DNA from: Mobula hypostoma
Taxonomy: Eukaryota
Reading direction: 5' to 3'
DNA length: 64,000 nt
Assembly (NCBI RefSeq): GCF_963921235.1
Contig: NC_086097.1
Location: forward strand, 33,358,001-33,422,000
Each line of letters begins with the position of its first letter. Within the stretch, counting starts at the first letter, position 1. The notes beneath the pieces were generated by a model that was not told where the DNA came from, did no database searches, and was given only the letters and a program-made list of their open reading frames with translations. This document shows, piece by piece, positions 10,835 to 38,035 of this stretch. A program made the position numbers and the translations under genes.

Positions 10835-12706
10835 ACAAGCAACACACATAAACATTGCTGGTGAACGCGGCAGGCCAGGCAGCATCTCTAGGAAGAGGTA
10901 CAGTCGACGTTTCCGGCCGAGACCCTTCGTCAGGACTAACTGAAAGAAGAGCTAGTAAGAGATTTGAAAGGGGGAGGGGGAGATCCAAAATGATAGAAGA
11001 AGACAGGAGGGGGAGGGATGGAGCCAAGAGCTGGACAGTTGATTGGCAAAAGGGATATGAGAGAATCATGGGATGGGAGGCCTAGGGAGAAAGAAAGCGG
11101 GGGGAGGAAGCCCCGAGGATGGACAAGGAGTATAGTGAGAGGGACAGAGGGAGAAAAAGGAGAGAGAGGAAAAAAAATTAATAATAAATAAATAAATGAA
11201 TAACGGATGGGGTACAAAGGGGAGGTGGGGCATTAGCGGAAGTTGGAGAAGTCAATGTTCATGCCATCAGGTTGGAGGCTACCCAGACGGAATATAAGGT
11301 GTTGTTCATCCAACCTGAGTGTGGCTTCATCTTGACAGTAGAGGAGGCCGTGGATAGACACTTCAGAATGAGAATGGGACGTGGAATTAAAATGTGTGGC
11401 CACTGGGAGATCCTGCTTTCTCTGGCGGACAGAGCATAGGTGTTCAGCAAAACGGTCTCCCAGCCTGTGTCCAGTCTTGCCAATATATAGAAGGCCACAT
11501 CGGGAGCACTGGATGCATTATATCACCCCAGCCGACTCACAGGTGAAGTGTCGCCTCACCTAGAAGGACTGTTTGAGGCCCTGAATGGTGGTGAGGGAGG
11601 AAGTGTAAGGGCATGTGTAGCACTTGTTCCGCTTACAAAGATAAGTGCCGGGAGGGAGATCGGTGGGAAGGGATGGGGGGGGAGGATGAATGGGCAAGGG
11701 AGTCGCGTAGGGAGCGATCCCTGCGGAAATCAGGGTGGGGGGGGAGGGAAAGATGTGCTTAGTGGTGGGATCCCGTTGGAGGTGGCGGAAGTTACGGAGG
11801 ATTATATGTTGGACCCGGAGGCTGGTGGGGTGGTAGGTGAGGACAAGGGGAACTCTATTCCTAGTGGGGTGGCGGGAGGATGAGGTGAGAGCAGATGTGC
11901 GTGAAATGGGAGAGATGCGTTTGAGAGCAGAGTTGATGGTGGAGGAAGGGAAGCCCCTTTCTTTAAAAAAGGAGGACATCTCCTTCGTCCTGAAATGAAA
12001 AGCCTCATCCTGAGAGCAGATACGGCAGAGACGGAGGAATTGCGAGAAGGGGATGGCATTTTTGCAAGAGACAGGGTGAGAAGAGGAATAGTCCAGGTAG
12101 CTGTGAGAGTCCGTAGGCTTATAGTAGACATCAGTGGATAAGCTGTCTCCAGAGACAGAGACAGAAAGATCAAGAAAGGGGAGGGAGGTGTCGGAAATGG
12201 ACCAGGTAAACTTGAGGGCAGGGTGAAAGTTGGAGGCAAAGTTAATGAAGTCAACGAGCTCAGTATGTGTGCAGGAAGCAGCGCCAATGCAGTCATCGAT
12301 GTAGCGAAGGAAAAGTGGGGGACAGATACCAGTATAGGCTTGGAACATGGATTGTTCCACAAAGCCAACAAAAAGGCAGGCATAGCTAGGACCCATACAA
12401 GGTGCCCATAGCTACACCTTTAGTTTGGAGGAAGTGGGAGGAGCCAAAGGAAAAATTATTAACAGTAAGGACCAATTCCGCTAGACGGAGGACAGTGGTG
12501 GTAGAGGGGCACTGGTTAGGTCTGGAATCCAAAAAGAAGCGGAGAGCTTTGAGACCTTCCTGATGGGGGATGAAAGTATATAGGGACTGGACATCCATGG
12601 TGAAAATAAAGCAGTGGGGGCCATGGAAAAAATCATCGAAAAAATTCAGAGTGTGAGAAGTGTCACGAACATAGGTAGGAAGGGATTGAACAAGGGGGGA
12701 TAAAAC
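10835..12706 (-). mobile_element. Penelope-like retroelement (Neptune-type), 5'-truncated: RT, Cys linker, GIY-YIG endonuclease and 3' terminus
   Basis: Frameshifted ORFs with PLE RT motifs (FTMDVQSLYT, QTKGVAMGT/MGPSYACLFVG, LRYIDD), CKRNKCYTC linker and a GIY-YIG region. Candidate 8-bp TSD ctttggtt at 10827-10834 and 12707-12714; the flanks rejoin into one older element. Confidence 0.93.
10902..10937 (-). ncRNA. Minimal type I hammerhead ribozyme motif (PLE-associated)
   Basis: Reverse complement agtc ctgacga agggtctcggccg gaaa cgtc gact; core intact, stem II variant. Confidence 0.8.
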
Positions 12707-14753
12707 CTTTGGTTGACTGCAGAGAGGCCACTTCATCCGAGCATACTGCCATCTTACTGGAATTACTTTTATTTGTCAGTCTTTGTTTATGTGTAGTGTT
12801 CTTCATAAATTCTGTTGTATTGCTTTATTTTCCTTTAAATGCAGGCAAGAAAATGAATCACAAAGTAGATAATGGTAACATGTGTAATTTGATAATAAAC
12901 ATACTTTGAAACTCTGACACTCGCACATCTTGAAGGAAAAGCAGTGAGAATGTCCATGGGCTTTGACTGTAGGCTGGCTTCACCTTTGTTTTTACAGTAG
13001 CGGGATCTGTTTTTCGTTCAGTGCTCACTACCATGCCTTCACAGAATGTGCTTTGTATCAGGCTCCAGATGCTGTGGTCAGTGTGTGCCCAAACATCTGC
13101 AGTCTAAAACAAAGCCAGACTGGCAGATGCAGCACAGCCAATAACTGTTGGCAGAGTCCGTGCAACAGATATCTGTGCACTTACCTTGCCTGCTCCACTC
13201 CACTTCTGAGCCTGATTGTCTGCTCCTTACTACTGTCACGTTGGGAAGGCCCACTGCCGGCAGCTCTCCTGGACCAGATATCTGCACTTAGCCTGCCTGG
13301 AGGAGGTACAGGAGCCCAAAGACCCACACTCAATGTTATAGGAACAGCTTCTACCCTTCCACAATCAGATTTCTGAACAGTCCATGAAAATTATCTCACT
13401 ATTTTTGCTCACTTTCTATGCCTCCGATTTATGGTATATGTTATGTTCTATTCTGTATTTCTGCCACAAAGCAACAAATTTCATGACATATGTCCGTGAT
13501 TATAAACTTGATTTTGATTCTGATTTTGCTCTCGTACAGTACTGAGCTTGATTAACCAGTCTTCCACAAGCTCGAATTCTTTGTCATAATCTATTGTGGC
13601 AGCTTTGTATCTTTACAAAATGTGCTCTGGTTACCTTACAGCAGTTCAGAATTGTGAAATGTTCCAGCAAGGAGTTAGACTTTCGACCCTTTACTGTACC
13701 CAGCCTAGTCTTGGGGGTTCTTTAGTACCCCTCTCTCAGTGACATTTAGTGTCCCACCCAGTCTAACCATGCAATCCTTGAAGACTTGTTCCGCCATTCA
13801 GTAAGATCAGAATTGATCCCATTTTAACCTCAACTACCTTCCTACGTTAGAGTAGACCAGCAATCTTTTCACTGGAAATGTATTCAATGACTTAACATAG
13901 AACATAGAACATTACAACACAGTACAAGCCCTTCGTACCACGATGTTGTGCTGACATAACCTACTCCATCCAAGCTCAGTCTAGCACATCCCTCCCACAT
14001 AGCCCTCCACTGTTCTATCATCCATGTGCCTATCTAAAAATCTTTTAAATGTCCCTAACGTATCTGCAATATGCCTCTTATCTTGTACACCTGAAACTTG
14101 GCCTCTGGTGCAGAAAATTCCAAACATTGATAGCCCTATGAGAGTAGTTGTTCCTAAGTGGATAGATCTTCATTCTAACACTGTGTCCAAGGTCTAGGCT
14201 TCCCCCTCAAGGGGAGCCATCTCAGCATCTAACCTCACAGTCCTGTACATTTTCATGGAAATATGTCTTATTCCTCTAAACTGCAACAAACGTTGGCCCA
14301 GTCTCTGAGGTAGGTGCATTAGATACACTGAAGAAGTATGTGGATAGGTATATGGATCACCTAAGGGATATAGGCCAAGTGCCGGGAAATGGGATTAGCT
14401 TGAACGTGCACCTTGATCAGCATGGCCATGTATGGGCCGAAGGGCTTTTTCCACACTGTAAAACTCCATCCTCAATACTGTTCCCTCTGAGCTGCGTGGA
14501 TGCATATCCGCACAGTAACTAAAATGCTCCAGCACACATAGCCTTTGTTGCTGCACAGGTATTTAATCTAAACATTCAGCGTATGCATATTACGAAAGAA
14601 AACATTTAAAGTGCCATACAATTTTCAGGCCGTGTAAAAATACCCTGCTCAAAGCAATCAACAGGAATTCTGCAGATGCTGGAAATTCAAGCAACATACA
14701 TCAAAGTTGCTGGTGAACGCAGCAGGCCAAGCAGCATCTATAGGAAGAGGCGC

Positions 14754-14789
14754 AGTCGACGTTTCAGGCCGAGACCCTTCGTCAGGACT
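14754..14789 (-). ncRNA. Minimal type I hammerhead ribozyme motif (PLE-associated)
   Basis: Reverse complement is identical to the motif at 16082-16117. Confidence 0.85.
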
Positions 14790-16081
14790 AACTGAAGGAA
14801 GAGTGAGTAAGGGATTTGAAAGCTGGAGGGGGAGGGGGAGATGCAAAATGATAGGAGAAGACAGGAGGGGGAGGGATAGAGCCGAGAGCTGGACAGGTGA
14901 TAGGCAAAAGGGGATACGAGAGGATCATGGGACAGGAGGCCTAGGGAGGAAGACAGGGGGGGGGGTGACCCAGAGGATGGGCAAGAGGTATATTCAGAGG
15001 GACAGAGGGAGAAAAAGGAGAGTGAGAGAAAGAATGTGTGCATAAAAATGAGTAACAGCTGGGGTACGAGGGGGAGGTGGGGCCTAGCGGAAGTTAGAGA
15101 AGTCAATGTTCATGCCATCAGGTTGGAGGCTACCCAGACGGAATATAAGGTGTTGTTCCTCCAACCTGAGTGTGGCTTCATCTTTACAGTAGAGGAGGCC
15201 GTGGATAGACATGTCAGAATGGGAATGGGATGTGGAATTAAAATGTGTGGCCACTGGGAGATCCTGCTTTCTCTGGCGGACAGAGCGTAGATGTTCAGCA
15301 AAGCGGTCTCCCAGTCTGCGTCGGGTCTCACCAATATATAAAAGGCCACATCGGGAGCACTGGACGCAGTATATCATATATATGTAAGCGGAACAAGTGC
15401 TACACATGCCCTTACACTTCCTCCCTTACCACCATTCAGGGCCCCAAACAGTCCTTCCAGGTGAGGCATCACTTCACCTGTGAGTCGACTGGGGTGATAT
15501 ACTGCGTCCGGTGCTCCCGATGTGGCCTTTTATATATTGGTGAGACCCAACGCAGACTGGGAGACCGCTTTGCTGAACATCTACGCTCTGTCCGCCAGAG
15601 AAAGCAGGATCTCCCAGTGGCCACACATTTTAATTCCACATCCCATTCCCATTCTGACATGTCTATCCACGGCCTCCTCTACTGTAAAGATGAAGCCACA
15701 CTCAGGTTGGAGGAACAACACCTTATATTCCGTCTGGGTAGCCTCCAACCTGATGGCATGAACATTGACTTCTCTAACTTCCGCTAGGCCCCACCTCCCC
15801 CTCGTACCCCAGCTGTTACTCATTTTTATGCACACATTCTTTCTCTCACTCTCCTTTTTCTCCCTCTGTCCCTCTGAATATACCTCTTGCCCATCCTCTG
15901 GGTCACCCCCCCCCCTGTCTTTCTCCCTAGGCCTCCTGTCCCATGATCCTCTCGTATCCCCTTTTGCCTATCACCTGTCCAGCTCTCGGCTCTATCCCTC
16001 CCCCTCCTGTCTTCTCCTATCATTTTGCATCTCCCCCTCCCCCTCCAGCTTTCAAATCCCTTACTCACTCTTCCTTCAGTT

Positions 16082-16117
16082 AGTCCTGACGAAGGGTCTC
16101 GGCCTGAAACGTCGACT
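16082..16117 (+). ncRNA. Minimal type I hammerhead ribozyme motif (PLE-associated)
   Basis: AGTC-CTGACGA-AGG(gtctcgg)CCT-GAAA-C-GTC-GACT: stem I AGUC/GACU, core CUGANGA and GAAA, stem II AGG/CCU, loopless palindromic stem III (ACGU), GUC cleavage triplet. Confidence 0.85.
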
Positions 16118-16224
16118 GCGCCTCTTCCTATAGATGCTGCTTGGCCTGCTGCGTTCACCAGCAACTTTGATGTATGCTGCTCAAAGCAATGGTTGTTTTG
16201 TGCAGCTGTAAAAAAAAATTAGAG

Positions 16225-17050
16225 GGAACATTGGCCCTCAATTTTGGAAAGTGTATGGTTATGCACTTTGGCAGAAGAAATAAACGGGCAGACTATTATT
16301 TAAATGGGGAAAAAATTCAAAGTTCTGAGACGCAACGGGAATTGGGAGTCCTCGTACAGGATACCCTTAAGGTTAACCTCCAGGCTGAGTCGGTGGTGAA
16401 GAAGGCGAATGCAATGTTGGCATTCATTTCTAGAGGAATAGAGTATAGGAGCAGGGATGTGACGTTGAGACTCTATAAGGCGCTGGTGAGACCCCACTTG
16501 GAGTACTGGGGGCAGTTTTGGTCTCCTTATTTAAGAAAGGATGTGCTGACGTTGGAGAGGGTACAGAGAAGATTCACTGGAATGATTCCGGGACTGAGAG
16601 GGTTAATATATGAGGAAAGTTTGTCTGCTCTTGGACTGTATTCCTTGGAGTTTAGAAGAATGAGGGGAGACCTCAGAAACATTTCGAATGTTGAAAGGCA
16701 TGGACAGAGTGGATGTGGCAAAATTGTTTCCCATGGTGGAGGAGTCTAGTACGAGAGGGCATGACTTAAGGATTGAAGGGTGCCCATTCAGAACAGATAT
16801 GCGAAGAAATTTTTTTAGTCAGAGGGTGGTGAATCTATGGAATTTGTTGCCACAGGCAGCAGTGGAAGCCAAGTCATTCGGTGTATTTAAGGCAGAGATT
16901 GATAGGTATCTGAGTAGCCAGGGCATCAAAGGTTATGGCAGGGGAGTGGGACTAAATGGGAGAATGGATCAGCTCATGATAAAATGGCGGAGCAGACTCG
17001 ATGGGCCGAATAGCCGACTTCTGCTCCTTTATCTTATGGTCTTATGGTCT
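16225..17050 (+). mobile_element. CR1 LINE 3' fragment
   Basis: ORF LYKALVRPHLEYWGQFWSPYLRKD; tail tcttatggtcttatggtct. Confidence 0.9.
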
Positions 17051-17672
17051 CAATCTTGTCATATTGGGAAAAAACTGCTAGATCTTCTCTGGAATGCCCT
17101 GACTGACCAAGGCAAGTGTGCTAAATACCTTTTCCACAGCATTGTCTGTGATGCCACTTTCAACAAACTATGCACTTGTATCATAGCTTCCTCTGTTCCA
17201 TTATATTCCCTGGTGCTCTCCCATTTATAATACAAGTCCTATACTGATTTGACTTTCCAATATGCGTCACCTTAGATATGAGGGGTGATTGATAAGTTTG
17301 TGGCCTGAGGGAGAAGGAGTCAATTTTAAAAAACCTAGCACATTTATTTTTCAACATAATCCCCTCCTACATTTACACACTTAGTCCAGCGGTCATGGAG
17401 CATACGGATCTTGGACCTCCAGGAAGTGCCCACAGCAGGGGTGATTGATAAGTTTGTGGCCTAAGGCAGAAGAAGATGAGTTATACAGCTCTCGTTACAT
17501 GCACATGCAGTTCAACTTTGAGTGATTATGCAGAAAGTTTGAGGTTAATAACTCATCGGGGTGATTGATAAGTTTGTGGCCTAAGGTAGAAGGAGGTAAG
17601 TTATTAACTTCAAACTTTCTGCATAATCACTCAAAGAGTTGAACTGCAGTTAAACTGTTGAAAAATAAATGT

Positions 17673-17982
17673 AAACAACAGGAATTCTGCAGATGCTGGA
17701 AATTCAAGCAACACACATCAAAGTTGCTGGTGAACGCAGCAGGCCAGGCAGCATCTGTAGGAAGAGGTGCAGTCGACGTTTCAGGACGAGACCCTTCGTC
17801 AGGACTAACTGAAGGAAGAGTGAGTAAGGGATTTGAAAGTTGGAGGGGGAGGGGGAGATCCAAAATGATAGGACAAGACAGGAGGGGGAGGGATAGAGCC
17901 AAGAGCTGGACAGGTGATAGGCAAAAGGGGATACGAGAGGATCATGGGACAGGAGGTCCGGGAAGAAAGACAAGGGGGGGGG
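17673..17982 (-). mobile_element. Penelope-like element 3'-terminal fragment
   Basis: Nearly identical to the terminus at 14659-14960. 10-bp TSD aaataaatgt at 17663-17672 and 17983-17992. Confidence 0.92.
17771..17806 (-). ncRNA. Minimal type I hammerhead ribozyme motif (PLE-associated)
   Basis: Reverse complement agtc ctgacga agggtctcgtcct gaaa cgtc gact. Confidence 0.83.
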
Positions 17983-20736: not shown

Positions 20737-22471
20737 TATGTTACAAACAATAGGTCCCAGTGCTGGTCATAGACCTCCAGTCGGAATAACACCATTTCAG
20801 GTAGCCGGCTTCAATTCTAACTTCAAGCTTTCCGTGTGGAGTTTGTATGTTCTCACTCTGACAGTGTGGTTCGTCGGGGTGCTGCAGTTCCCTCTCACGT
20901 CCCAATGACAGCGGGTCAGTGAACTGACCACTGTAATGTTGGTAAATAACCAAGAAACCAAAGAGTGCTTGATGAGCAAATAAGGAGTATAAACACAAGA
21001 AATTCTGCAGATACTGGAAATCCAAAGCAACATATTCAAAAAGCTGGAGGAACCCAGCAGGTCAAGCAGCATCCATGGAAATGAATAAACAGTCAACGTT
21101 TCTAAGACCCTACAAGAGGGAAATAAGGAAGTAGAGATGACCCTGATGAAAATGGGGCTTAGAGATGATGGGCTGAATGCCTCCTTCTATGTCATAATAA
21201 CTGGTATATCAATTCACTATCCAAGGTTCAAAGGAAATTTACTATCAAAATACATATATGTTACCATACACTACCGTGAGATTCACTTTCTTGCAGGCAT
21301 TTTCAGGAAAATAAAGAAATACAAAAGAATTTACAAAAACTAGACATAAATAACAACTGACAAACAACCGATGTGCAAAACAAGAAAAATTATGCAAATA
21401 AAAAATAATACTAATAACCTGAGTCTGTAGGTTGTAGAATAAGTTCAGAGTTGTGGTGAGTGAAGTTATACACGCCGGTTCAGGAGCCTGATGATGAAGG
21501 GTAATAGCTGTTCTTGAACTTGGTGGTGTGTAACCTAAGGCTTCTGAACCTCCTTCCCAATGGCAATAAAGAGCATTACTTATATGGTGGGGGTCCTTAT
21601 GATGGATCCTGCTTTCTTGTGACAGTTTTCTTTGTAAATGTACTCAATGGTGGGGAGGGTTTTTCCTGTGATGAAAAGGTTGTATACACCAATTTTTGTA
21701 GACTTTTCCATTCCTGGGCATTGGAGTCATGGACATTGGAGCTTTAGACCATAAGACACAGGAACAGAAGTGGGCCATTCAACCCATCAAGTTTGCTCCA
21801 CCATTCCATAACGGCTGATCCACCATCCCTCTCAACCCCTTTCTCTTGTCTTCTCCCCATAAACTTTGACGTCCTTACTACCCAAGAACAAGTCAACCTT
21901 CAGTTTAAATATACCTAATGACTTGGCCTCCACAGCAATCTGTGGCAATAAAGTCCACATATTCACCATCTTCTGGCTGAAGAAATTCTTCCCCACCTCT
22001 GTTCTAAAGGACTATTCTGAGGCTTGTCTTCTGGTTCCAGACTCCCCTACTATAGGAAACTACCTCTCCACATCCCCTCCAATATTCAATAGGTTTCAAT
22101 GAGATCCACACCCCCTCCCCGCCATTCTGCTGAACTCCAGCAAATACAGCCCCAAGCCATCAAACGCTGTTCATAGGTTAACCCTTTCATTCTCAGAATC
22201 ATTCCAGTGAACCTCCTTGGAACTCTTTCCAATGCCAAGCCCACTCCTAAGTCCCTTTACACCGAGGATTTTTGAATTTTTTTCCCCATTTAGAAAATGG
22301 TCTATGCTTTTATTCCTTCTACAAAATGCATGACCATACACTTCCATACACTATATTCCATCTATCACTTCTTTGCCTATTTTCCTAAACTGTCTAAACC
22401 TTTCTGAAACAACACACATCAAAGTTGCTGGTGAATGCAGCAGGCCAGGCAGCATCTGTAGGAAGAGGTGC

Positions 22472-22507
22472 AGTCGACGTTTCAGGCCGAGACCCTTCAT
22501 CAGGACT
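22472..22507 (-). ncRNA. Minimal type I hammerhead ribozyme motif (PLE-associated)
   Basis: Reverse complement agtc ctgatga agggtctcggcct gaaa cgtc gact. Confidence 0.83.
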
Positions 22508-22515
22508 AACTCGTT

Positions 22516-22551
22516 AGTCCTGACGAAGGGTCTTGGCCTGAAACGTCGACT
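22516..22551 (+). ncRNA. Minimal type I hammerhead ribozyme motif (PLE-associated)
   Basis: agtc ctgacga agggtcttggcct gaaa cgtc gact. Confidence 0.83.
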
Positions 22552-23844
22552 GCACCTCTTCCTACAGATGCTGCCTGGCCTGCTGCATTCACCAGCAACT
22601 TTGATGTGTGTTGCTTGAATTTCCAGCATCTGCAGAATTCCTGTTGTTTGCGTTTAAAAAAACCTTTCTGAAGACTGTTTCTTCAACACTACCTGCCCCT
22701 CCACCTATCTTCATATTGTCTGCAAACTTGACCACAAAGCCATAAATTCCATCATCCATCACTAACATATTACATGAAAAAAGTGGTCCAAATTCCGACC
22801 TCTGAGGATCACCACTAATCACCAGCAGCCATCTAGAAAAGGTCCCTTTATTTCCACTTCTTGACTCCTACCAGTCAGCCAATCTTCTATCCATGCCAGT
22901 ATCTTTCCTGTAACACCATGGGCTCTTATCTTGTTTAGCAGCCTCATGTGTGTCACCTTGTGAAAGGCCTTATGAAAATCCAAATAAACAACATCAGCTG
23001 GCTCCGTTGTCTATGCTGACTGTTATTTCTTGTCTGATGGAAGTACCGAGAAGAGAAAATAACCTTGATGATAGATGCTGCTTTCTTGTGGCAAAGTTCC
23101 ATGTAAATATCATAGATGGTCGGGAGAGCTTTGTCTTTGATGGACTGTACTATATCAACCACCTTCTGTAGACTTTTCCGTTCCTGGGCATTGATGTTTC
23201 CATAGCAGGCCATGATGCAACCAATTAGGATAATCTCCACTGTCCATCTTTAGAGGTTTGTTAATGCTTTGGTGACGTCCCAAATCTACACAAACTTCTA
23301 AGAAAGTAGTGGTGCTGTCGAATCTTCTTTGTAATGGAATTTACATGCTGATCCCAGAATAGATCCTTTGATATATTAATACCAAGAAATTTAAACTACT
23401 GACCCTCTTCACCTCCGATCCCCTAAGAGGACTGGCTCATGGACCTCTGGCTTCTTCCTACAGTCAATAATCAACTCTTTGATTTGTTGACATTAAGTGA
23501 AAGGTTAATTTTGTTGTGACAGGCCATATTTGCGGAGAACCACCTTCAAAACATGGATGCCAGCAGCCAGTGGCCAGCTCTGCTCGCTCCCTGCAGCCCA
23601 ACATCACTGAACAGCACCCAGCGACCAGCACGGCAGCAGAAGCCGGAAGCATCTCAGGGCAGCCCTCTGCTTCTCCCAAGACCACCGCCGACAAGCAAAC
23701 AGGGGACGACCAGAAAAACAGGCATCCAGAGAGTGCCCAGGTAAGACGCTCAGCACACACCCATTGCTCCGTCTGGGATCCATGTTTACACTGCCTTGTC
23801 TATTCAATCTCAGACTGAGACTCAGGCTAACCTCACACACCCCT

Positions 23845-26800
23845 CAGCCTGTATGGGAAAATCAGGTTGGTGCTGGATCCCAAGAGAGAGAACTTGTAGA
23901 ATGCCTACGTGATGGCTTTTTAGAACAGCTTGTGATTGAGCCCACGAGGGGATCAGTTGTTTTGGATTGGGCGTTGTGAAATAAGCTGGATATGATTAGG
24001 GAGCTTAAGGTAAAGGAATCCATTGGAGACAATGATCATAATATATAGAAATCATCCTCAATTTGAGAGGGAGAAGCTGAAGTCAGATGTATCAGCATTA
24101 CAGTGGAGTAAAAGGAATTACAGAGGTATGAGAGAGGAGCTAGCCAAAGTTGATTAGAAGGGGGCAGAACACCAATGGCTGGAGTTGTTGGGAGCAACTC
24201 GGAAGGCGCAGTATAGGTACATCCAAAGAAGAAGTATTCTAAAGGCAGCATGACGCAACTGTGGCTGACAAGGGAAGTCAAAGACAACATAAAAGCAAAA
24301 GAAAGGGCATATAATAGAGCAAAAAGTAGTGGGAAGTTAAAGGATTGGGATATTTTTAAAAATCAGCAGATGATAAATAAAAATATCTTAAGAAGGAAAA
24401 GATGAAATATGAAGGTAAGCTAGCCAATAATATCAAAAAAGGACACCAATCTTTTTTTCTGATATATAAAGAATAAAAGATTTCAGACAACGGTAGTAGA
24501 ATCATTTCAAGCTTGTATAAGGGTTTGTCAAATCTTAAAACACATTCGACTTCATACATTAAAACAAAATGGGAGAAGGAAGGAGGGATAATAATATCTG
24601 AGGAAGAATGGACAATAACATGGAGGTATCGATGGAAGTGTACCAGTTCACAGAAATGGAGGGAGTTCGGATGGAAAAACTTGGTAAGATATTTTATTAC
24701 ACCCTCTCAGAAATCCCATTATGACAGTAACCTCCCTGTTTGCTGGAGAAATTGTGGAAATCAAAATGCAAATGCCCTGTTATCAAAGACTATTGGAGGG
24801 GGATACATAATACCCTACAAGACATCTTTAAATGTGTAATACCCGTAGAGAGTAAGACCATATATTTTGGGTATATACCTTAAGAATAGTTGAAAAGAGA
24901 TAAATATTTAATGAATATACTGCTAGTGGCTGGTAAAAAGACCCTCACCAGGAAATGGTTATCACAGGAGAGCCCAACTTTAAATGTATGGATGGAAATT
25001 GTAATGGACATTTACAAAATGGAGAAGATAACAGCATCTGTTAATCATAAGTTGGAACAATTTGATTCATACTGGGAAAAATGATTTAACTACATAACAC
25101 CTCATAGGCCTGATTTTTATTCTCACAAGTCAATGCATATGTTATAAAAAAAATCACTCCCTACTTTGTACATAGTTTTCTTCTTTTGATTGTTCTTGCT
25201 TTCCTCTCCTTTCTATAAGTGTATACCTCAGATAAATATTATGTGGAGATTTGTGACAAATATGATTATAAGATATATATGTACAGTATCTGAAATACAT
25301 CTTATGGAAATGTTTGTTTGATGATGAACTTCAATAAAAAATAAATTACAAAAAAAAAGAATAAAAGATAGGCAAAAGTAGATATTAGACCACTGGGAAA
25401 TGAAACTGGAGAGGTAGTAACAGGGGACAAGGAAACAGCGAATGCATTGAATAAGTGTGTTGTATCGAATAAGTGTGTTGCATCTATCTTCACTGTGGAA
25501 GACTAACAATATGCTGGAAGTTCGAGAGTGTCGGGAGCAGAAGTGAGTGCAGTTGCTATTACTAAGGAGAAGGTACTTGGGAAACTGAAAGGCTTGAAGA
25601 TACATACATCACCAGGACCAGACGGACTACACTGCAGGGTTCTAAAAGAGGTAATCGAAGAGATTGAGGAGGTATTGGTAAGAACTTTTAAGGATCACTA
25701 CATTCTGGCATAGTAGGTTGTGTCTAACCAATCTTAAAGAGTTTTTCGAGGAAGTTACCAGGAAAGTTGATGAAGGCAAGGCAGTTGATATTGTATATAT
25801 GGACTTCAGCAAGGCATTTGACAAGGTCCTGCATGGGATGTTGGTCAAGAAGGTTCAGTCAGTTGGTATTTCAGATGAGGTAGTAAATTGGATTAGACAT
25901 TGGCTTTGTGAGAAAAGTAAATGGTTGCCTCTCTGACAGGAGGCATATGACCAGTGGAGTGCTGCAGGGATTGGTGCCAGGTCTGTTTGTCATTTATATC
26001 AACAATCTGGATGATAATCTGGTTAACTGGATCAGCAAATTTGTAGAGGACACCATGATTGGGAGTGCAATGGACAGCAAGGAAGACTATCAGAGCTTGC
26101 ACCGCATCTAGACCAGCTGAAAAATGGCAGATGGAATTTAATGCAAAGAAGTGCAAGGTGTTGCACTTCAGTAGGACCAGCCAGAATTAGTCTCACACAG
26201 TTAATGGTAGAGCACTGAGGAGTGTGGTAGAACAAAGGGATCTGGGAATACAGGTCTATAATTCATTGAAGTGGTGTCACAGGTAGATAGGGTCGTAAAG
26301 AAAGCTTTTGCCACATTGGTCTTTATTAATCAAAGTATTGAGTACATGGGGATTGAATATTATGTTGCAGTTGTCTAAGACACTGGTGAGGCCTAATTGG
26401 GTGCAGTTTTGGTCACCTACCTAAAGAAAAGATGTAAGTAAGGTTGAAATGGTATAGAGAAAATTTATAAGGACATTGCTTGGACTGGACGATCTGAATT
26501 GATAGAGGTATACAACATTTTGAGCAGTTATAGATAGGGTAAATGCAAGCAGGCTTTTTCCCAATGAGACTGGATAGGACTACAACTACAGATCGTAGGT
26601 TAAGAGTGAAAGGTTAAATGTTTAAGCGAAAAATGAGCGGAAACTTCAGAGGATGGTGAGGGTGGAATGAGCTATCTGCGCAAGTGTAGGATATGATTTC
26701 AATTTCAATGTTTCAGAGAAGTTTGGAAAGGTACATGGATCATAGGGGTATGGAGGGCTAATACCATGGTACAGGTTGATGGGAGTAGACAGCTTAAATG

Positions 26801-27584: not shown

Positions 27585-29315
27585 GTTACTCCTGCAAGCA
27601 GGACAAGTGCTACACCTGCCCCTACACCATAAGACATAGGAGCAGAATTAGGCCAATCGGCCCATTGAGTCTGCTTCACCATTCCATGATGGCTGATTTA
27701 TTAACCCACTCAACTCCATTCTCCTGCCTTCTCCCCGTAACCTTTGACGGCCTGATTAATCAAGAACCTATCGATCTTTGCCTTAAATATACCCAATGAC
27801 TGCACAGCCATCTGCGGCAATGAATTCCACAGATTCACCACCCTCTAGCTAAAGAAATTTTTCCTCATCTCTGTTCTAAATGGACTTCCCTCAATTCTGA
27901 GGCTGCGCCCTCTGTTCCTAAGCTCCTGCACTATAGGAAACATCCTCTCCATATGCACTCTGTGTAGGCCTTCCCAATTTTCAATAGGTTTCAAAGAAAT
28001 CTATCCTCATTCTTCTAAGCTCTGTGTTCTAAACCCTAAGGTGCTGTCTGGCCCATGCCTTATAAAGCTTCAGCCTTGCCTTTGTATTCTAGTCATCACA
28101 AAATGAATTCTAACATTGTATTTGCCTTCCTTACTACTGACTCAAACTGCATGTTAACCTTTAGGGAATCCTGCACGAGGACTCCCATGTCCCTTTGCAA
28201 CACTGAATTTTGAATTTTCTCCCCATTTAGAAAATAGTCCACACAGTTATTCCTTCTACCAAAGTGCAAGACCATGCACTTCTTTGCACGATGTTCCATC
28301 TGGCATTTCTTTGCCCAATTTGTCTAAGTTCTTCTGCAGACAGTCTGCTTCCTCAACACTACCTGCTCCTCCACCTGTCTTTGTATCGTACGCAAACTTG
28401 GCCGTAAAGTCATCAATTCCTTCACCCAAATCATTGACATATTACGTGAAAAAGTAGTCCCAACACCAACCCCTGTGGATCACCACTCTTCACCCGCAGC
28501 CAAGCGGAAAAGCCCACCCTATTCCCACTCTTTGCCTCCTGCCAAATGCTCTATCCATGCTCGTATCTTTCCTGTAATACCATGGGCTCTTATCTTGTTT
28601 AACAGACTCATGTGCATCACCTTGTCAAAGGCCTCCTGAAAATCCAAATTAAACAACATCCACTGACTCCCCTTTGTCTATCCTCCCTGCTTTCTCACCT
28701 CCTGCATCACTACCATTCAGGGCCCTGAACAGTCCTTCCAGGTGAGCTGATACTTCAACTGCGAGCCTGTGGGGGCTGGTGTGTGGTCTCCTCTACAGCT
28801 TTGGACAGAACTCTGTTTGGGGGTGAGGGAGAACAAAAACTTAGTAATCATTTATATTGGTGAGATCTAATGTAGATTGGGAGATCACTTTGTCAAGTGC
28901 CTTCGCTCTGTCCACCAAAAGAGGAAGTTTTTCCCAGTGGCCACTGCCCATTTCAATTCAACTTCCCATTCCCATTCCAACATGTCGGTCCAGTGCATCA
29001 TCTACTGTCACAATAAGGCCACTCTCAGGCTGAAGGAGCAGCACCTCATATTCCATCTGGATAGCCTCCAACCTTCTAGCACGAACATAGATTTCTCTAA
29101 CCTCTAATAATTTCTCCTCCTTCCCTCCTACTCCTTGCATCTCCCCCACCTTCCTAGTCTGATTTTTGCCCCCTTTCTTTCAGTCCTGAGGGAGGCTCTC
29201 AACCCAAAACCTTGACTGTTCATTCCCCTCCATAGATGTTGCCTGACCTGCTGAATTCCTCAGGTGTTGTGAGTGTGTTGCTCTGGATTTCCAGCATCTG
29301 CAGAATCTCTTGTAC
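27585..29315 (+). mobile_element. Older Penelope-like element fragment (Cys linker, GIY-YIG, 3' end), split by a CR1 insertion
   Basis: Linker tgcaagcaggacaagtgctacacctgcccctacacc at about 27590-27627 resumes at about 28695. ORF 28877-29107 gives GDHFVKCLRSVHQKRKFFPVATAHFNSTSHSHSNM. Degenerate terminus at about 29180-29315. Confidence 0.8.
27628..28685 (-). mobile_element. CR1 LINE 3' fragment inserted in an older PLE
   Basis: CR1 tail and ORF2 remnant KCMVLHFGRRN. Confidence 0.82.
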
Positions 29316-31004
29316 TGTACTGATAGTTTATAACACTGCAGCATACAGCAAGGGTGCTTCCTTCCCTCAGGGTAAAGGTGATGAAATGGGGACCCTGGAA
29401 CAGTGGTCAATCACAGTGGAAGATTGGCAGATCTCCAGGGAACTGATCCTTAAAGATAAAATGTTACATTTTTTGGAGGGAGTTAGACTGAGGAGGAGGT
29501 TAGTACCAAAGGAAGAGGATGTAACTTGTAGGCCATCACAGCTGGGTCCCTCCAGAGTGTTTGGTATCTGAGCCATCTAACTGTGTGGTGCTCGAGCTTG
29601 TTTATTGCTGTTTATTGGCGTCTATTTCAAGGGGAGGGGATCTCTGCCTCAGCTGCTGAGATTTGGCGGAGGAAAGCAGGGGTTCGTGGGTGGTTATACT
29701 GTCCAATTTAGCCTTAGGTCTTTTGTACTCCTTTGTCTCTCGGGCCCTGTGAACCAATCCACAGAGGGCAAACAGTACTTCCGCCTGTGGATCCTGAACA
29801 TCCATTCCCTGAGCTGGTAGACCCACCTTCCCCTCCCTCCTACAGAGCCTGACACAGGGGCACCCACACCCATAACTGCCGGCACCGTTTGTCTAAGGCT
29901 CCCAAGGAATCTCCCCCTCCTGTTTCACTTTGTTTTGCTCCAGGTTTTCTGCTGATGTTTCTCTTTTTCCCACACTCGGGCCCAGCCACACTGACAAAAC
30001 CACAAAAATGCGGAGAAGTTTAAGCACTCAATAGAAATTTGATTCCAGTTCTACTGAATAAACACTCAGTGTGCCAGGGCCAGCTAGCGAGCAGCGGTCC
30101 TGACAGTTAACTCCCTAAACATTAACATGCACTAATCGACCCGCACATTAACCCTCTGTTAGATTTACCTCATATATCAACGCTCCTGCGCTTTATCCCT
30201 CCGATACAGCTATATTCTCTACATCAACCCCTCTATATTCATAGGACTGCACAGTAGCATAACACTTTACAGTGCCAGCAAATCCCTCCACTATCTGTCA
30301 GGAGTTTGTACGTTCCCCCTGTGACCATGTGAGTTTCTTTCAGGTACTCTGGTTTCCTCCCACATTCCAAAGACATACATGTTAGGGTAGTAAGTTGTGG
30401 GCATGTTATGTTGGTGCCAAAAGTCTGGCAACAGTTACGGGCTGCCCCCAGCACATCCTCAGACTGTGTTGACTCATGTACTTATCCAGACTTCCCAGGG
30501 AATTGAGTGTGTGTTTAACTCAGCACTGGATTTAATAGGATAACATACCACTGTTATTTGTTTTTTTTTACGTAAAAGAGTTTAGTAAATATACTGGTGG
30601 ACTGTGGTTTTCCAACCAAAATCTAGGAAAGTTCTTACATCTGCTTGTTTCAGAGTTGATGGAGGGATGCAGACCGGCCAGCCACCCTTGGATTCAGCAT
30701 GGGGGAACAAGGCAGCAAATTACAAACACAAGAAATCCTGCAGATGCTGGAAATCTTGAGCAACACACAGAAAATGCTGGAGGAATTCCTGATGAAGGAT
30801 CTTGGCCCAAAACGTTGACTGTTTATTCCCCTCAATAGATACTGCCTGACCTGCTGAGTTCCTCCAGCATTGTGTGTGTGTATGTGTGTTGCAGGAATTT
30901 AGGGAAATGTTCCACAGACTGCTCAGACCCCCCTCAGGTTCCTGCCACTCACTGATGCCCACTGAAGATGTTGGGGGTCTTGAAGGCTTTATGATGATTG
31001 CCTG

Positions 31005-31380: not shown

Positions 31381-31497
31381 GACAAAGTTACCCGAGTCCT
31401 CTATTGAGCAGTGGCTTAGCTTTCAGTGACTGTGTGGGTGACTGGATCAGTCCTGATGAAGGGTCTTGATCTTAAATATCAGCTATACTTCTCTGTC

Positions 31498-31703: not shown

Positions 31704-34700
31704 ATACTTCTCTGTCCACAGATCTCCCAGACCCTCTGAGTTAGAGTTGTACAACTCAGAAAAAGGCCCATTTGTGTCCGTGCTGACCAAGGTGTATATT
31801 GAAGCTAATCCCATTTCCCAACACTCGGCCCATATCCCTCTAAACTCTTGTCATCCACACACCTATCCACACTGTTCTTAAATATACCTATTGCACCTTC
31901 CTCAGCCGTTCCCTCAGGCAGCCAGAGCCTCCACTTCTGGTATGTTCTCCAATCAGCTTAATCTGTCCTCAGAGGACAAAGTTACCATTCCAGGAGTCAG
32001 ACGGGGAAAGTTTCACTGTACTTTTGTCAAGTATATCTTTCCTTATACAGGGAATCAAGATTATACCCAGAATTCCAAATATGTTTCCAAAGTTCTATTG
32101 ATTTATAACACGATGTGTCTGATCTTCTACTTAGATCACCTTGTAATAATGTCCAATAGGTTTGCCTTCCTGAATCAGCATTATAAGCTCCAATGGTTCG
32201 TGTAGAAGGACACCCACATTGCTTCAATCTGAGGCTTTTTGACAGAGCTGGAAGAACTGGGAGCTTGGAGAGGAAAGATAATGAGTTTAAAGACCATACC
32301 TATAACACCACGAGTAAGGTTGCTCAAACAAGGTTTTCCTTTCAAATTACATTCTGGCTGTTTATGGGTATAATGTCCATTTCCGGATGCTCTTCTTCCC
32401 TTGGGATTCCGTCATTTTCCCTGTCATTATTGTTGCACTGTCTGGTGTGTAGTTCCCCGGGTACATGGCGAGGTCCGCCTGCCTATCCAGGTTACCGTTA
32501 AAGACCCCACAGAGCTTTGGAGTGCCTACGCAATCCTGGGCCGTTATTTGTTGCTCAGCCAGCAGCACCATAAAACCCTGCATTGGCAGGCAAGTTCCTT
32601 CTGTTGGTGGGATCAGGCAGCATAAAATGGGCTTCCTCTTTTACTCCTTTCCAGAGGTATATCTTTTAATGGTTTTGCGATGCAGAGGTTTGGAAGTCAA
32701 GAATAAGGCATAAAACTTGTTGCTTATGGCTGTCTCATTAAGTGATGCAAGAACATAGAACAACACAGCACAGGCCTTTGGCCCACAATGTTGTGCCGTC
32801 CCTTTAACCTACTCCAAGAACAATCTAATATAAAGAACAAACAGAAAGAGTTGAGGACAAAGAATTCATGGTCGTGCTCTGGAAAACCAGCTGTGACTGA
32901 AATGTTAACATTCCAGTGATAACAATTAATCTAGAATAGACAGCTTCAAGTAGTATGATACCTGCTGAAGAAATAACATCTAAGAAGCTTCTAGAAAAAT
33001 ACAGAAGCAGCTATACCACAATTACTAGAAAATTTGCCGAACATATATAGGTGATTATATAAACATATAAGCAAGCATATGAAAGTAAAACTACAAGGAA
33101 ATTGACAATTCTACACCTGAATCCAACAAAACGTGTGATGAGAGAGTATTTCTAAGTCCCAGTCTCTCCTTTCATGTTGCTTCTGAGCTGAATGAAACAT
33201 AAATGGGACTGGTGTTTCTGGTCCCAGACCAGCAGAAGAAAGGCTTCCCTTGTCTGTTTCAGTGGGAAGGTGAGAGAGAATGCAGAGACTGACTGTGACA
33301 GGAGCTGCACATTGGATGGGCACAGACCAGCGCAAAGTTCAGAATAAGTCTTCAAGTAACACATTAATTCACATTACTAAGCCTGAAAATAGTAGAGCAA
33401 AGCCCAGGGGAACCATCTCCTTCTCCAGATTGCACTCCTGAACTGGAATTACTGCACCCTCCCTGTAAAATATATTTAACATCCAGCTGCTTGCTGGGCC
33501 CTGTCACACAGGCTGCGATAGTGGGCTTTCTCTCACATCTTCCTTCACATGCCTGCTTGTTTTTGTGTTCACACTTAAAACAAATATTGTGCTCAGTTCT
33601 GGTCACCTCATTATAAGAAGTGTATATCAGATCGATTGCGGGGATGTGGCAGTTGTGCACGTGACCATTTGATGATACAGTAAATCGATTGGGCTTCCCA
33701 TGTGCGGGAGTCTCTCACTTTTGGGTGCTGGCTTTCAAGTGCACATGTCTTTGTTTCGGAGAGGTCACTGTAGCTCTGCGCATACATAACAAGAAGGGTG
33801 TGGAAGCTTTAGGCAGGGTGCAGAGAAGATTTACCAGGATGCTGCCTGGATTAGAGAGCGTGTAACATATACAAAATGCTGGAGGAACTCAGCAGGTCAG
33901 GCAGCATCTATGGATGGGAATAAACAGTTGATGCTTCAAGCCAAGAATCTTCATCAAACAGGATAGTTGAGCAAGCTAGGATTTTTCTGTTTGTAGCAAA
34001 GGAGGATGAGAGGTGAATTGATAGAGGTATACAAGATGATAAGAGGCATGGAACATGTGGACAGCTAGAGACTTTTAACTAGGTCAGTAATGGCCAGTAC
34101 AAGGGGTCATACATTTAAGATGATTGGAGGAAAGTATGGGCGGGGGGGGGTGTCAGAAGTAAGTTTTTTTTTACACACAGAGCGGTAAGTGCATAGAATA
34201 CACTACCATGAGTGGTAGAAGTTTCTTGGATGATAGAAAAATAGAGGGCTATGTGGGAGGGAAGGGTTAGTTTGATCTTAGAGTAGGTTACAAGGTTGGC
34301 ACTACATCGTGGGCTGAAGGGCCTGTATTGTGCTGTAATGTTCTATGTTCCATGTGTTCTATGTAACATAGAATATTGCTGTACGGTACTGGCCCTTCAG
34401 CTCATGATGTTGTGCCTACCTTTTATGTATGTGGAGGTGGGCATGAAGTGAAGCTGCTTGTTCTTTTCTTTCAGGGTGACTGCCTTTGATGGCCGTCAGT
34501 CAGGGGCTCCACGGATGTACTCAGCCGAGTTGACCCTCCCCAGCAATACAGGTGAGACACTTGTTGTAAGTGAGAACCCCAAATACTGCAAACACTGAGA
34601 ATCTGAAAACACTCAGCAGGTCAGACAGCGTCCATGGGCAGATACATAGTTAATGCTTCAGGTCTGGAGATTCAGCTGTGTCCTCAGTTGGAGCACCAGA

Positions 34701-36089
34701 GCCAAAGGAACAGCATTATTAATGTCACATTAAAGATTAAAGATTATCTTTATTTGTCATGTGTACATCGAAAATCAAAAGATATTGTGAAATGTGTTAT
34801 TTGCATCAACAACCAACATGGTCCAAGGATGTGCTGGGGGCAGCCCGCAAGTGTTGCCATGCTTCCGGCATTAACATGGTATGACGACAACTTAGTAACC
34901 CTAACCTGTACAGAACGTCTTTGGAATGTGAGAACAAGCCCATGCGGAAGCACCCAGAGGAAAACCATGTGATCACAGGAAGAACATGAAAACTCCTTAC
35001 AGACAGCAGCAGGAACTGAGCCCTGAATGCCCGTGCTGTAGAGTGTTGTGCTGGCTGCCATGCTACCATCTCACCCTTTGGCATTAGAGGGGAGATTGAC
35101 AGTCAGGAAGAGCAAAGGGCGAGGAGAGAGTAATTGACAGGGTAAAATGGTTGTAACAAGAGAGAGAGGGGGATTCCAGAAGGATAGGGAGGTGGCATGG
35201 AGGGAAGTGTAGTGAGATGCAGAGAGAAAGTGAGGGTTTGAGGGAGGGAGGATGAGACAGAGGAGAGGTGAGACAGGGGAAAACTATGGGCTTCCTTCCC
35301 GAAGTTGGTTTGGTTTGACCATGTTCTTACAGTTTACCATTCACTTTAGAGAATACAACTTACCACTCATCAGGAAAGTATAGAAACTCTTTATCATGAG
35401 GAGTTTAGAGTAAGATGGGTGACATTGGCCAGGTTCAAGAACTGAATGAAGGGAACAGCTGTGCATCTGTACAGTGGCCCTGCAATTGGGAGCAGTGAAG
35501 CAAAGGTAGAAAAGGAGGATGATGCAAGCTACAGAGAAGAGTGTTAGCTTGTGCTACTGGATAGTATATTCACGAGATTCCAGCATGCCCACCTCAACAA
35601 CTGCCCCACTGAGCAGCTGATTGGATGAAATGGGAGCAGGTTTTTTTCTATCTACAACCACTAAAAGAAAATGTTCAGAAGTGAGAATCATTGAACCATG
35701 TATGGGACAGTGCAAGAGGGAGGCTGTGCACTTTCACCTGTGCCAGCTCTGACTGTGCCCTACGGTCGGACCCCAGCCCCGGGCACATGGGGCTGGGCTG
35801 AGAGCTGTAGAAATAGCCAGTGAGATGACTGTTCTGACCAATGGGATGGAGACAAGGTCTAAAGTCTGTCCCTGAGGTTGGGAGCCATCCATTCCACTCA
35901 GCCGTGGGAGTGCGTGTGTGGGCAGTTAGTGACAGGCAGTGATGCCAGTGGGTTTTGACTTTACCAGGATGGTCTGCCCCAGAACTGCTGGGCAAACATC
36001 AGAGGAATAGGCGAAGAGTTGTCGCAGATGGAGCATATTCTATATGGGACTCCTGCTCTTCATGATTCTTATAAATCACTTGGCTGAGG

Positions 36090-36970
36090 AAATGGAAGGA
36101 TGGGTTAGTAAGTATATAGATGGCACAAAGGTTGGTGGAGTTGTGGATAGTTCTGGTTGTCATGGATTACAACAGGACATTGACAGGATGTAGAGCTGTG
36201 CTGAGATGGTGTTCAATCTGGAAAAGTGTGAAGTGATTCACTTTGGAATGCCAAATTTGAAGGCAGAATACAAAGTTAATGGTAGGATTCTTGGTAATGT
36301 GGAGGAACAGAGGAGTCCACATCTATAGATCCCTCAAGGTTGCCTTGCAAGTTGATAGAGTGGTTAAGAATGTGTATGGTGTGTTGGCCATCATTTGTCA
36401 GGGGATTAAGTTCAAGAGCCCCAAGGTAATGTTGCATCTCTCTAAACAGTGGATAGATCACACCTAGAGTATTATGTTCAGTTCTGATTGCCTTATTATA
36501 GGAGGGATATGGAAAGTTTAGAGAGGGTACAGAGAAGATTTACCAGGATGCTGCTTGGACCAGAAGGCATGCCTTCAGAAAAAAGGTTAAGCAAGCTAGG
36601 GCTTTTGCATTTGGAGTGAAGGAGGATGAAAGGTGACTTGATAGAGATGTACAAGATGTAAGAGGCACAGATAGAGTGGATAGTCAGAGACTTTTTAGCT
36701 AAGAGAAATAGCTTAAATGAGAGGGCATAGTTTTAAGGTGATTAGAGGAAAGCATAAGGGGGGATGTTAGAGAGAGGCGGGTACATGAAACACCCTGTTG
36801 TTGGTGGTGGTAGAGGCAAGTACATTAGGGATACTTAAGAGACTATTAGAAAGAAAAGTGGAGGGCTATGTGTGAGGGAAAAGTTAGATTGATCTTAGAG
36901 TAGCTTAAAAGGTTGGCACAACATAATGGGCCAAAAGGCCTGTACTGTAATGTACTGTTCAATGTTCTAC
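36090..36970 (+). mobile_element. CR1 LINE 3' fragment
   Basis: Decayed copy of the subfamily at 46452-47634; similar pieces at about 33785-34360 and 61785-62225. Confidence 0.78.
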
Positions 36971-37574
36971 ATTCAATGGGACATCAGTGGATGAGAACAG
37001 CATTCAATGAGGGGCCTAATGGGATATTAGTGGGAAGGGAGCTGGTGAGGGACTATCCCTTGGGACATGAGTGGGGGTTTGAGAGTGTCTGATGCACCAT
37101 GTCAGGCACTGAAGAGGGTGAGGGGGTAAATGGTCAGGCTGCCACTGCCACTATGTATTGGGTGTGAATATTTTCAGTCCCGCAGCAAAAGGAAACCTGC
37201 TTTTGTCCACTGTCGATCCCCCAGCATCCCAAACAATCTCAGTGTTCACGTGCCTATGGGTGACCAGGGCTTATATCAACTGAGGGCCTGTAGATTAATC
37301 TTCAGCGCTCTGTAGGTTTAGCAGCCCAGTGTTTGCCGTGAGATGGATAGGCAGTTGAAGGAGGCCCTGTGTGAATAACTCTTTATTACACAGTGGAAAC
37401 ATGATTGGATTAACAAGGGTGTTGTAAGTTCATGCTCTGATAATGAAGGGCTTCACTGTGTGTCATAGGTGGTGCAACCATTTCAGTTCAATTTTGTATT
37501 TCCATTCAGACATGTCTGTCCATGGCATCGTTGACTATCATGGTGAGGCCTGTCTTGGGTTAGGGGAGAGTATT

Positions 37575-38035
37575 CCACCTCATATTCTGCATGGGTAGCC
37601 TCTAACCCGATAGCGTGAAAACTGATTTCTCTAATTTACTGTAATTTTTCCCTCCTCCCAATTTCCCTATTTCCATTCCCCATTCTGGTTACCCGTTCAC
37701 ATCTTCTCCTCAGATGTCCATTACCTCTCTCTGGTTCCCCTCCTCCTCCCCTTTCTCCTATACTCCACTCTCCTCTCCTAGCAGATTCCTTATGCTTCAG
37801 CTTCTCCCCCTATCACCTCCCAGCTGATCACTTCATTTCCTCTCACCCACCCACTTACCTTTCCCCCACCTTCTTAATCTGGCTTCTTCTCTCTTCCTTT
37901 CCAGTCCTGATGAAGGGTCTCGGTCTGAAACGTTGACTGTTTGTTCCCTTCCATCGACGCTGCCTGACCTGCTGAGTCCCTCCAACGTTTTGTGTGTGTT
38001 GTTCAAGATTTCCAGCATCTGCAGAATCTCTTGTG
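37575..38035 (+). mobile_element. Older Penelope-like element 3' fragment
   Basis: End of the GIY-YIG coding sequence (cacctcatattctgcatgggtagcctc), pyrimidine-rich UTR, hammerhead core and terminal ttccagcatctgcagaatctc. Confidence 0.82.
37903..37938 (+). ncRNA. Minimal hammerhead ribozyme motif, older subfamily (GUU triplet)
   Basis: agtc ctgatga agggtctcggtct gaaa cgtt gact; core intact. Confidence 0.72.

Follow-up and report, generated by a model that had tools for sequence, protein, structure and literature searches.

Minimal hammerhead motifs in an apparently young Penelope-like element of Mobula hypostoma: likely inert tips and candidate full-length dimers

A 64,000-nucleotide stretch of the genome of Mobula hypostoma (contig NC_086097.1, positions 33,358,001 to 33,422,000 of the forward strand; hereafter the window) repeatedly carries a short motif with the letters of a hammerhead ribozyme at the termini of Penelope-like elements (PLEs). 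The locus raises the question whether such motifs act as ribozymes when two copies pair with each other and, if so, which copies would do this. The motifs are very likely minimal type I hammerheads in the pseudo-long terminal repeats (pLTRs) of a recent PLE of the Neptune/Nematis type, of which the tips in the window are likely inert, whilst dimers in full-length elements would cut slowly, probably aided by the protein of the element. The observations that weigh against this reading are gathered below.

An earlier note on this DNA had reported seven cores, and CTGAYGA...GAAA-CG-T-H between AGTC and GACT arms is indeed found at all seven places. In the RNA, stem I (AGUC) is followed by the core CUGAYGA, an extra A, a stem II of 3-4 pairs, GAA, A-C-G-U, H17 and the other arm of stem I (GACU). 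The core nucleotides C3 U4 G5 A6 N7 G8 A9, G12 A13 A14 A15 and U16 H17 are present in 7/7 copies, and so is the A-C-G-U of stem III. The motifs are located at 10902-10937 (-), 14754-14789 (-), 16082-16117 (+), 17771-17806 (-), where one change within stem II or its loop retains the pairing, 22472-22507 (-), 22516-22551 (+) and 37903-37938 (+). The last one belongs to an older subfamily, is 76% identical and has a weaker stem II, and its H17 is a U instead of the C found in the other six. The motif at 16082-16117 is sense to the open reading frame (ORF) of the element and lies 295 nt past its stop, and the cut between 16113 and 16114 had been predicted correctly. A structural descriptor, which demands the core, at least 3 pairs in stem II and at least 4 pairs in stem I, found 6 matches in the window, compared with a mean of 0.01 (maximum 1) in the 100 shuffles from which the chance level was taken. 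In six of the seven, pairing of stems I and II around the core is possible; the exception is 10902, in which a G at 11.1 breaks the closing pair of stem II and which fails the descriptor. Hence, "at least 7 intact cores" is right as to the core letters but not as to the stem II of 10902. Neither are there seven young 3' termini, as 37903 is older and the seven cores make up five insertions or remnants. The assignment to a known class, the minimal type I hammerhead of PLE pLTRs with the palindromic ACGU as stem III, is supported by the motif, the descriptor, the ORF and the literature. An Rfam scan of the whole window gave no matches at E<=1; since the hammerhead models of Rfam expect stem III to be capped and the stems to be longer, the scan has no bearing on the minimal form.

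The premise that two copies act together fits full-length elements elsewhere in the genome, where two same-strand copies lie 3.51 kb apart. In a set of 20 loci chosen by the start of the ORF and three earlier loci, 22 loci gave 23 same-strand hammerhead pairs with a spacing of 3,507-3,520 nt. Between the two hammerheads lies an ORF of 1,014-1,016 amino acids with a reverse transcriptase (RT) and, at the C-terminus, a GIY-YIG domain. The hammerheads are sense to the ORF and present in both pLTRs, and those in the window are sense to ORF remnants. In the 1,016-amino-acid ORF, the RT carries YIDD and DKG, the linker has CX4CxxC at residue 883, and the endonuclease is of the CCHH type, with CxxCxxC between GVIY and YIG and histidines further on. 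Matches to PF00078 and PF01541 on the full ORF were both just below the curated cut-offs, whereas PF01541 was above its cut-off on a frame in the window. There were 767 protein homologues at E<=1e-20, the best-scoring one, from Chiloscyllium punctatum, being 72% identical. The family appears to be young, since an open frame of 1,043 codons is kept in many copies. In the description of PLE clades in PMC8557442, a CX2-5CxxC motif in the linker is a mark of Neptune and Nematis that Penelope/Poseidon lack. Judged by this linker motif, the carrier would be a recently amplified, endonuclease-containing (EN+) PLE of the Neptune/Nematis type. Neptune is preferred over Nematis because it is the clade reported in fishes.

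As for EN+ PLEs, partial tandems, an inverted 5' copy, a one-sided tail and target duplications are all present. The pLTRs differ by 1.4% within one insertion as compared to 2.3% between insertions, and have rare variants in common; this greater likeness leaves a circular and a tandem template unseparated. The two pLTRs of the full-length element L083 (G000:C52) diverge by 6.8%, with differences at positions of the subfamily type, pointing to two templates or to conversion. Head-to-tail tandems of ~3.5 kb were seen at L306 (G000:C2:157228700-157237500) and at G000:C21:74011319/74014816 and 136338652/136342168, and an array of five copies with a spacing of ~4.65 kb at G000:C58:11273867-11293229.

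Pairing through ACGU would take place between the two hammerheads of a full-length element, which are separated by 3.5 kb, and cutting would be slow, probably with the protein of the element as a helper. We consider catalytic competence of such a dimer somewhat more likely than not. Nearest-neighbour folding, which undervalues hammerhead cores, gave a probability of 0.02 or less for stem I in a monomer in its context, and -6.7 kcal/mol for the explicit dimer versus -28.3 kcal/mol for a rival duplex via the palindrome GUCGAC. This perfect 6-base palindrome is located at 16111-16116 (+), centred on the cut, and allows an inactive duplex of two copies. In the young subfamily, a hairpin is predicted at 16067-16097 (+) and at the corresponding places of other copies, in which the 3' untranslated region (3' UTR) immediately ahead of the hammerhead pairs with the core and with the 5' arm of stem II, leaving a loop at -33..-28 (positions are counted with C17 as 0 at the cut, the first base of stem I being -31). 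According to this model, the hammerhead would be switched off unless the RNA starts near -31. The upstream hairpin, which was considered as a conserved off-switch, is predicted in the young subfamily and is variable in others. The same region also gives microhomology for head-to-head junctions.

What, then, are the copies in the window? Their five insertions or remnants show target-site duplications or decay, and none is a tandem pLTR pair. The core at 10902 belongs to a 5'-truncated copy of 1.9 kb at 10836-12706 (-), which covers element positions -1798 to +70, is 91% identical to the full-length L082 and is flanked by an 8-bp direct repeat at 10827 and 12707. It holds a broken part of the ORF, i.e., RT, thumb, linker and GIY-YIG, with a frame change near 12392-12396, followed by the 3' UTR, the hammerhead and a short tail. 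Two cores are found in a head-to-head insertion at 14656-16181, that of 14754 in the minus arm (15376-14656, -618 to +102) and that of 16082 in the plus arm (15382-16181, -731 to +68). The arms are 99% complementary across 687 bases, and a 14-bp target duplication lies at 14645 and 16177. Here, an open frame at 15242-15787 (+), of which the PLE part begins at 15374, contains the C-terminal GIY-YIG end of the PLE ORF (PF01541, E 4.8e-5). The core at 17771 is in a solo 5'-truncated terminus at 17666-17982 (-; -206 to +109) with a 10-bp target duplication. A short head-to-head insertion at 22407-22659, with a 13-bp target duplication at 22396 and 22660, harbors the core of 22472 in its minus arm and that of 22516 in its plus arm; the arms run from -35 to +69 and from -34 to +112, and nearest-neighbour folding predicts a hairpin of ~100 bp and -215.6 kcal/mol. 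The fifth is an older, decayed remnant near 37.5-38.0 kb (+), with endonuclease remnants at 37476-37637 upstream of the 37903 core. Four of the seven cores are thus in head-to-head pairs and, whichever strand is transcribed, would be part of a duplex. With these two pairs in hairpins and 10902 defective, one free intact core per strand is left, and there is no free, intact same-strand hammerhead pair within the window. That the window copies could serve one another as working dimer partners is not supported, given the four cores in hairpins and the one broken stem II. They are cut-off 3' tips and likely inert.

The earlier note had credited the lineage with a very high density of potentially self-cleaving motifs; the window, however, does not stand out by its density of termini. 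A terminus profile built from the window copies gave 17 matches in the 64 kb and 138 matches in 710 kb of unselected DNA elsewhere, with none in the reversed sequences used as controls; at that rate, a stretch as long as the window should have 12.4 (P(17 or more)=0.13). What did hold is the high copy number of the family, as one 34-base pattern had 48,359 exact matches in the 3.48-Gb genome (control 0). Extrapolation leads to a genome total of ~680,000 termini.

The conservation test that had been proposed gave a divided result: the hammerhead is far better kept than its flanks, but the core is barely above the stems, the loop and the tail, there is no two-sided covariation, and a subfamily with an altered core exists. 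Across five cluster majorities, which represent four distinct subfamilies as one cluster is no true subfamily (clusters of fewer than 3 members were left out), 26/36 columns of the hammerhead are invariant, compared with 0/25 upstream, 3/14 in the spacer and 28/39 in the tail block. Non-CpG substitution amounts to 4.5% in the core, 6.9% in the stems and loop and 5.6% in the tail block. Two-sided changes among 155 copies of these closely related subfamilies were of the CpG type only (4 at 2.1-1.1 and 3-4 at 15.2-16.2), besides singletons. CG is present at 15.2-16.2 in 65 of 131 sampled copies, the remainder being mostly CpG decay. An unpaired A between 9 and 10.1 is found in 111/118 copies, an A-U pair being the alternative reading where position 11.1 is a U. 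Of 117 copies, 48 have G-C and 53 have G-U as the 10.1-11.1 pair; G-U is also the state of the youngest, ORF-intact lineage, with U replacing the conserved C11.1. The subfamily with the altered core (CUGCCGA; A6C), seen at L140:618-654 and in L251-L270, is older, has its own upstream sequence and spacer, and accounts for 87 exact matches of 29 bases. A6C is a natural variant with low activity in Mg2+ that prefers Mn2+ in the accounts of PMC3088659 and PMC7151607. Upstream in the A6C subfamily, a 5-base complement of the altered core is found, possibly by chance.

Several of these observations speak against a cutting hammerhead of the kind proposed: the weak contrast between the core and the stems, loop and tail (4.5% vs. 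6.9% and 5.6%), the absence of two-sided covariation beyond CpG decay, the U11.1 of the youngest lineage and the spread of an older subfamily with an A6C core. The predicted folding energies favour neither active form, and the 6.8% divergence within L083 is not expected from a single circular template.

The ends of inserted copies tell what the template may have looked like. In 100 copies selected by tail pattern from the opening 7 Mb of a single contig, the 3' end lies at +55..73 in 44 and at +93..114 in 52, i.e., there are two preferred ends, at ~+65 and ~+102, both of which precede the first ATG of the ORF, located 139 nt past the cut site. As many as 53 of the 100 adjoin an inverted partner, and one arm of each 3'-end kind was present in 27/28 short head-to-head insertions with both ends readable. 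The tail-selected copies all extend beyond the cut on the 3' side, and the cut site is intact in them. Nor are 5' ends enriched at the cut: such ends were found in 2/60 short copies and in 1/17 short solos, which is not above chance. Locus L122 starts at +1, flush with its duplication, yet this duplication ends in element-like letters. We infer that RT starts at two internal sites downstream of the hammerhead on uncut or re-ligated RNA, and that both target strands may be primed, one per site, which would yield head-to-head pairs. Cleavage, if any, would then process or circularise the precursor and not set the ends of inserted copies. Self-primed fold-back was rejected as the origin of head-to-head copies, as it is a misfit where the later-starting arm has the longer 3' end (L208).

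The 5' ends were studied in those 100 copies, in 774 kb of unselected DNA, in 20 A6C copies and in 30 ORF-start copies. Apart from 7/100 copies that were left out as extension failures, 15/93 stop at -28..-34, which is 3.2%/nt as compared to 0.11-0.14%/nt beyond -300. Of the short solos, from which 4 edge copies were left out, 7/17 begin in this 7-nt stretch, with target duplications of 10-15 bp (scan P=0.004 under a simple uniform null picked after the data were seen). The same -31 edge is seen in older subfamilies and likewise in 6/20 A6C copies. In contrast, the upstream hammerhead is reached by 23 of the 30 ORF-start copies, of which one ends at -31 and 22 continue to -86 or far beyond. 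Short and long copies differ with P=0.058 in the narrow stretch and with P=0.0001 in -21..-46, where solos and long cDNAs differ as well (12/34 vs 1/23, P=0.006). That long cDNAs pass the edge argues against a plain structural block, although in the young subfamily a predicted hairpin, at -46..-16, would be a rival cause. The short copies most likely come from a template ending near -31, and the long ones presumably from a more-than-unit template, which may be a circle, a tandem read-through or the result of a jump to the second repeat. An RNA 5' end may well lie at the front edge of the hammerhead. Element sequence from farther upstream is joined straight to -31 or -30 at L170:7033 (-), at L144:4424 (-) and in a contig joint of 6467 to 6768 on L082; these joints resemble a template jump or deletion that may have occurred at the same edge.

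It is a possibility, to be held only tentatively, that the main RNA starts at the first base of stem I and that the hammerhead and tail act like a retroviral R region, giving strong-stop copies and a jump to the 3' repeat. RT primed at the 5' tail would then run off the end of the RNA, producing the solo and head-to-head copies of 95-135 bp; alternatively, it would jump to the 3' repeat and continue, by which a partial tandem is rebuilt. An initiator-like YYAGTCC is present at the start of stem I in the subfamilies seen. On the other side, no consistent cap-derived G was apparent by eye, and in the young subfamily the loop of the predicted hairpin is located at just this place. An origin of the edge from a spliced exon was rejected, as the flank is the target duplication in 7/7 solos checked, and spliced copies did not turn up. 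In all subfamilies seen, the hammerhead is directly preceded by a tract of pyrimidines that ends in AG (16060-16083 +, 37885-37904 +) and resembles a splice acceptor. Contigs of sequencing runs, RNA or DNA, cover the terminus and the ORF start, and have no bearing either way on expression, start site or cleavage. In them, there was no site where many molecules start or finish and, among the joints listed, no canonical splice joint to the hammerhead front.

With these data, other explanations of the motifs can be weighed. The hammerhead might be one by descent only, which no longer cuts and is kept as an RNA or DNA signal, e.g., an internal promoter or a protein-binding site, that extends from the start of stem I through the tail. 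The similar conservation of stems, loop, tail block and core, the missing covariation and cut-site footprint, and the share of A6C copies (6/110 copies of the unselected sample) would all agree with this, as would the reported lack of effect of hammerhead mutants on in vitro insertion of an anole element (PMC11167929) and the fact that Naiads thrive without hammerheads. However, in the youngest ORF-intact lineage all core letters are kept, together with the freedom of N7, the ACGU palindrome and the pairing of the stems; A6C has been found as a natural variant that retains some activity, and related PLE motifs cut as dimers or with a protein. We therefore regard a mere signal as rather unlikely.

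The slowly cutting full-length dimer has also to be set against a working population of dispersed copies, in which copies would pair via ACGU, either as two within the same host pre-mRNA or in trans, and cut host transcripts. Four minus-strand copies in the window do lie 3.0-4.7 kb apart, near the 3.5-kb spacing of full-length elements, there are ~37 descriptor-passing copies per Mb, and contigs of what are possibly RNA runs hold the terminus at great depth. But head-to-head hairpins lock up two of those four copies, stem II is broken in another, and the first 100 genome matches included 1 same-strand pair within 4 kb versus 8 divergent pairs. Furthermore, published dimers cut poorly even when adjacent, as far as described in PMC4209133, and the protein of the element may be required, which makes such a population improbable. 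Even less credit can be given to the idea that the short copies are a separate non-autonomous element, i.e., a retrozyme or a short interspersed element, with a master of its own. The many insertions of 95-135 bp with target duplications of 10-15 bp and nearly the same start base would suit it, and animal retrozymes are described as deriving from PLEs (bioRxiv 10.64898/2026.07.22.740005). Yet, the short copies are collinear with the autonomous terminus, 94-97% identical to it and grade into longer truncations; they have subfamily variants and both 3' ends in common with the autonomous element, and no diagnostic variants specific to them were found. Moreover, the unit forms no tandem arrays within the window, and the tandem non-coding repeats with a canonical hammerhead that characterize retrozymes were thus not encountered there.

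The window also contains older debris of the family. All seven degenerate places listed in the earlier note were recovered by the profile search, and three more were found (21114-, 34668- and 60998+). Degenerate old termini are located at 7124-7226 (+), 21030-21114 (-; missed before), 29182-29278 (+), behind endonuclease remnants at 28565-29101, 30787-30881 (+), with an inverted tail piece ahead of it at 30724-30780, 33865-33956 (-), 38608-38696 (+) and 62917-63010 (-). A degenerate hammerhead fragment is present at 31448-31493 (+), and degenerate fragments that had been missed are at 34601-34668 (-) and 60998-61055 (+). Besides PLEs, there are decayed fragments of the long interspersed element type at 16171-17230 (+), 47079-47681 (-), with an RT match (PF00078) at 47082-47681, and 55516-56004 (+), which we take to be CR1-like from the type of sequence. 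Open frames at 4549-4914 (-), 24477-24839 (+) and 48839-49483 (-) look like transposon remnants, without a Pfam match at E<=0.01; judged by eye, they are presumably a piece of a DNA transposase, an L1/Tx1-type end and an R2-type end, respectively. A tandem repeat at 5882-6430 has a period of 45 bp and 12 copies with 85% matches.

The value of this genome may lie in its use as a data set on how PLEs are copied, of which a record is left in its insertion ends, numbering in the hundreds of thousands, and in its many young copies with an intact ORF. The ends indicate a template that is intact at the cut, two RT starts, one per target strand, and short cDNAs halted at the hammerhead front. If that edge is truly the RNA start, it would explain how the end repeats of PLEs are rebuilt. 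If host transcripts were cut by the motif at all, its density of one copy per 5 kb would amount to a heavy load, but the evidence points away from this.

The class of hammerhead has been known since 2014, and what is described here is one further family. Cervera and De la Peña defined the minimal hammerhead (min-HHR) and described fish Xena, Poseidon and Neptune elements and scattered copies (PMC4209133). In their account, min-HHRs had no activity as monomers and low activity as dimers, and circular templates were proposed. The motifs of M. hypostoma share with min-HHRs the type I fold without loop 3, the palindromic 15.2-16.2, the stem I of 4-5 bp and the extra base before stem II. They likewise occur mostly solo, with few same-strand pairs, ~3 kb apart around an ORF in that work, and with opposite-strand duals, which were 100-700 bp apart in the published set (PMC4209133). 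They differ in that the youngest lineage has G-U or a shifted A-U instead of G10.1-C11.1, in that stem II has 3-4 bp, compared with 6-8 bp in Schistosoma and Drosophila, in the little variability within the genome and the lack of covariation, and in a copy number far above the 4,000-9,000 given for coelacanth and Xenopus (PMC4209133). No cartilaginous fish is named in the text consulted, and our literature search found no account of a PLE hammerhead in cartilaginous fishes, of this family or of strong-stop short copies, which is a weak negative as supplements may list the motif.

Very short palindromic stems III are also a feature of the small PLE hammerheads of Lünse, Weinberg and Breaker (RNA Biol 14:1499), which cleave as dimers according to a review (PMC6765202). 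For EN+ PLE insertions, an inverted pLTR and a one-sided tail of 30-40 bp have been described, and 5' truncation, partial tandems, a head-to-head inverted copy, a tail at one end and target duplications are common to those insertions and the ones studied here, whereas a concentration of 5' ends on the first base of stem I is not described in the accounts consulted (PMC8557442, PMC3846280). In Penelope of Drosophila virilis, an internal promoter and an intron that ends at helix I have been reported (PMC2377424; PMC4209133). The element Poseidon of Anolis carolinensis (PAc; Frangieh et al., 2024) belongs to another clade, without the CX2-5CxxC linker, and its start codon falls within stem II and its cut 26 nt into the ORF, unlike the downstream ATG found here (PMC11167929). 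Nevertheless, PAc offers a close parallel as described in that paper: cleavage by its hammerhead needs the protein of the element, and it has a hammerhead in the pLTR, two internal RT starts that define the tail, extension on both target strands and an uncut RNA as the template (PMC11167929), the latter four of which correspond to what the copies in M. hypostoma suggest.

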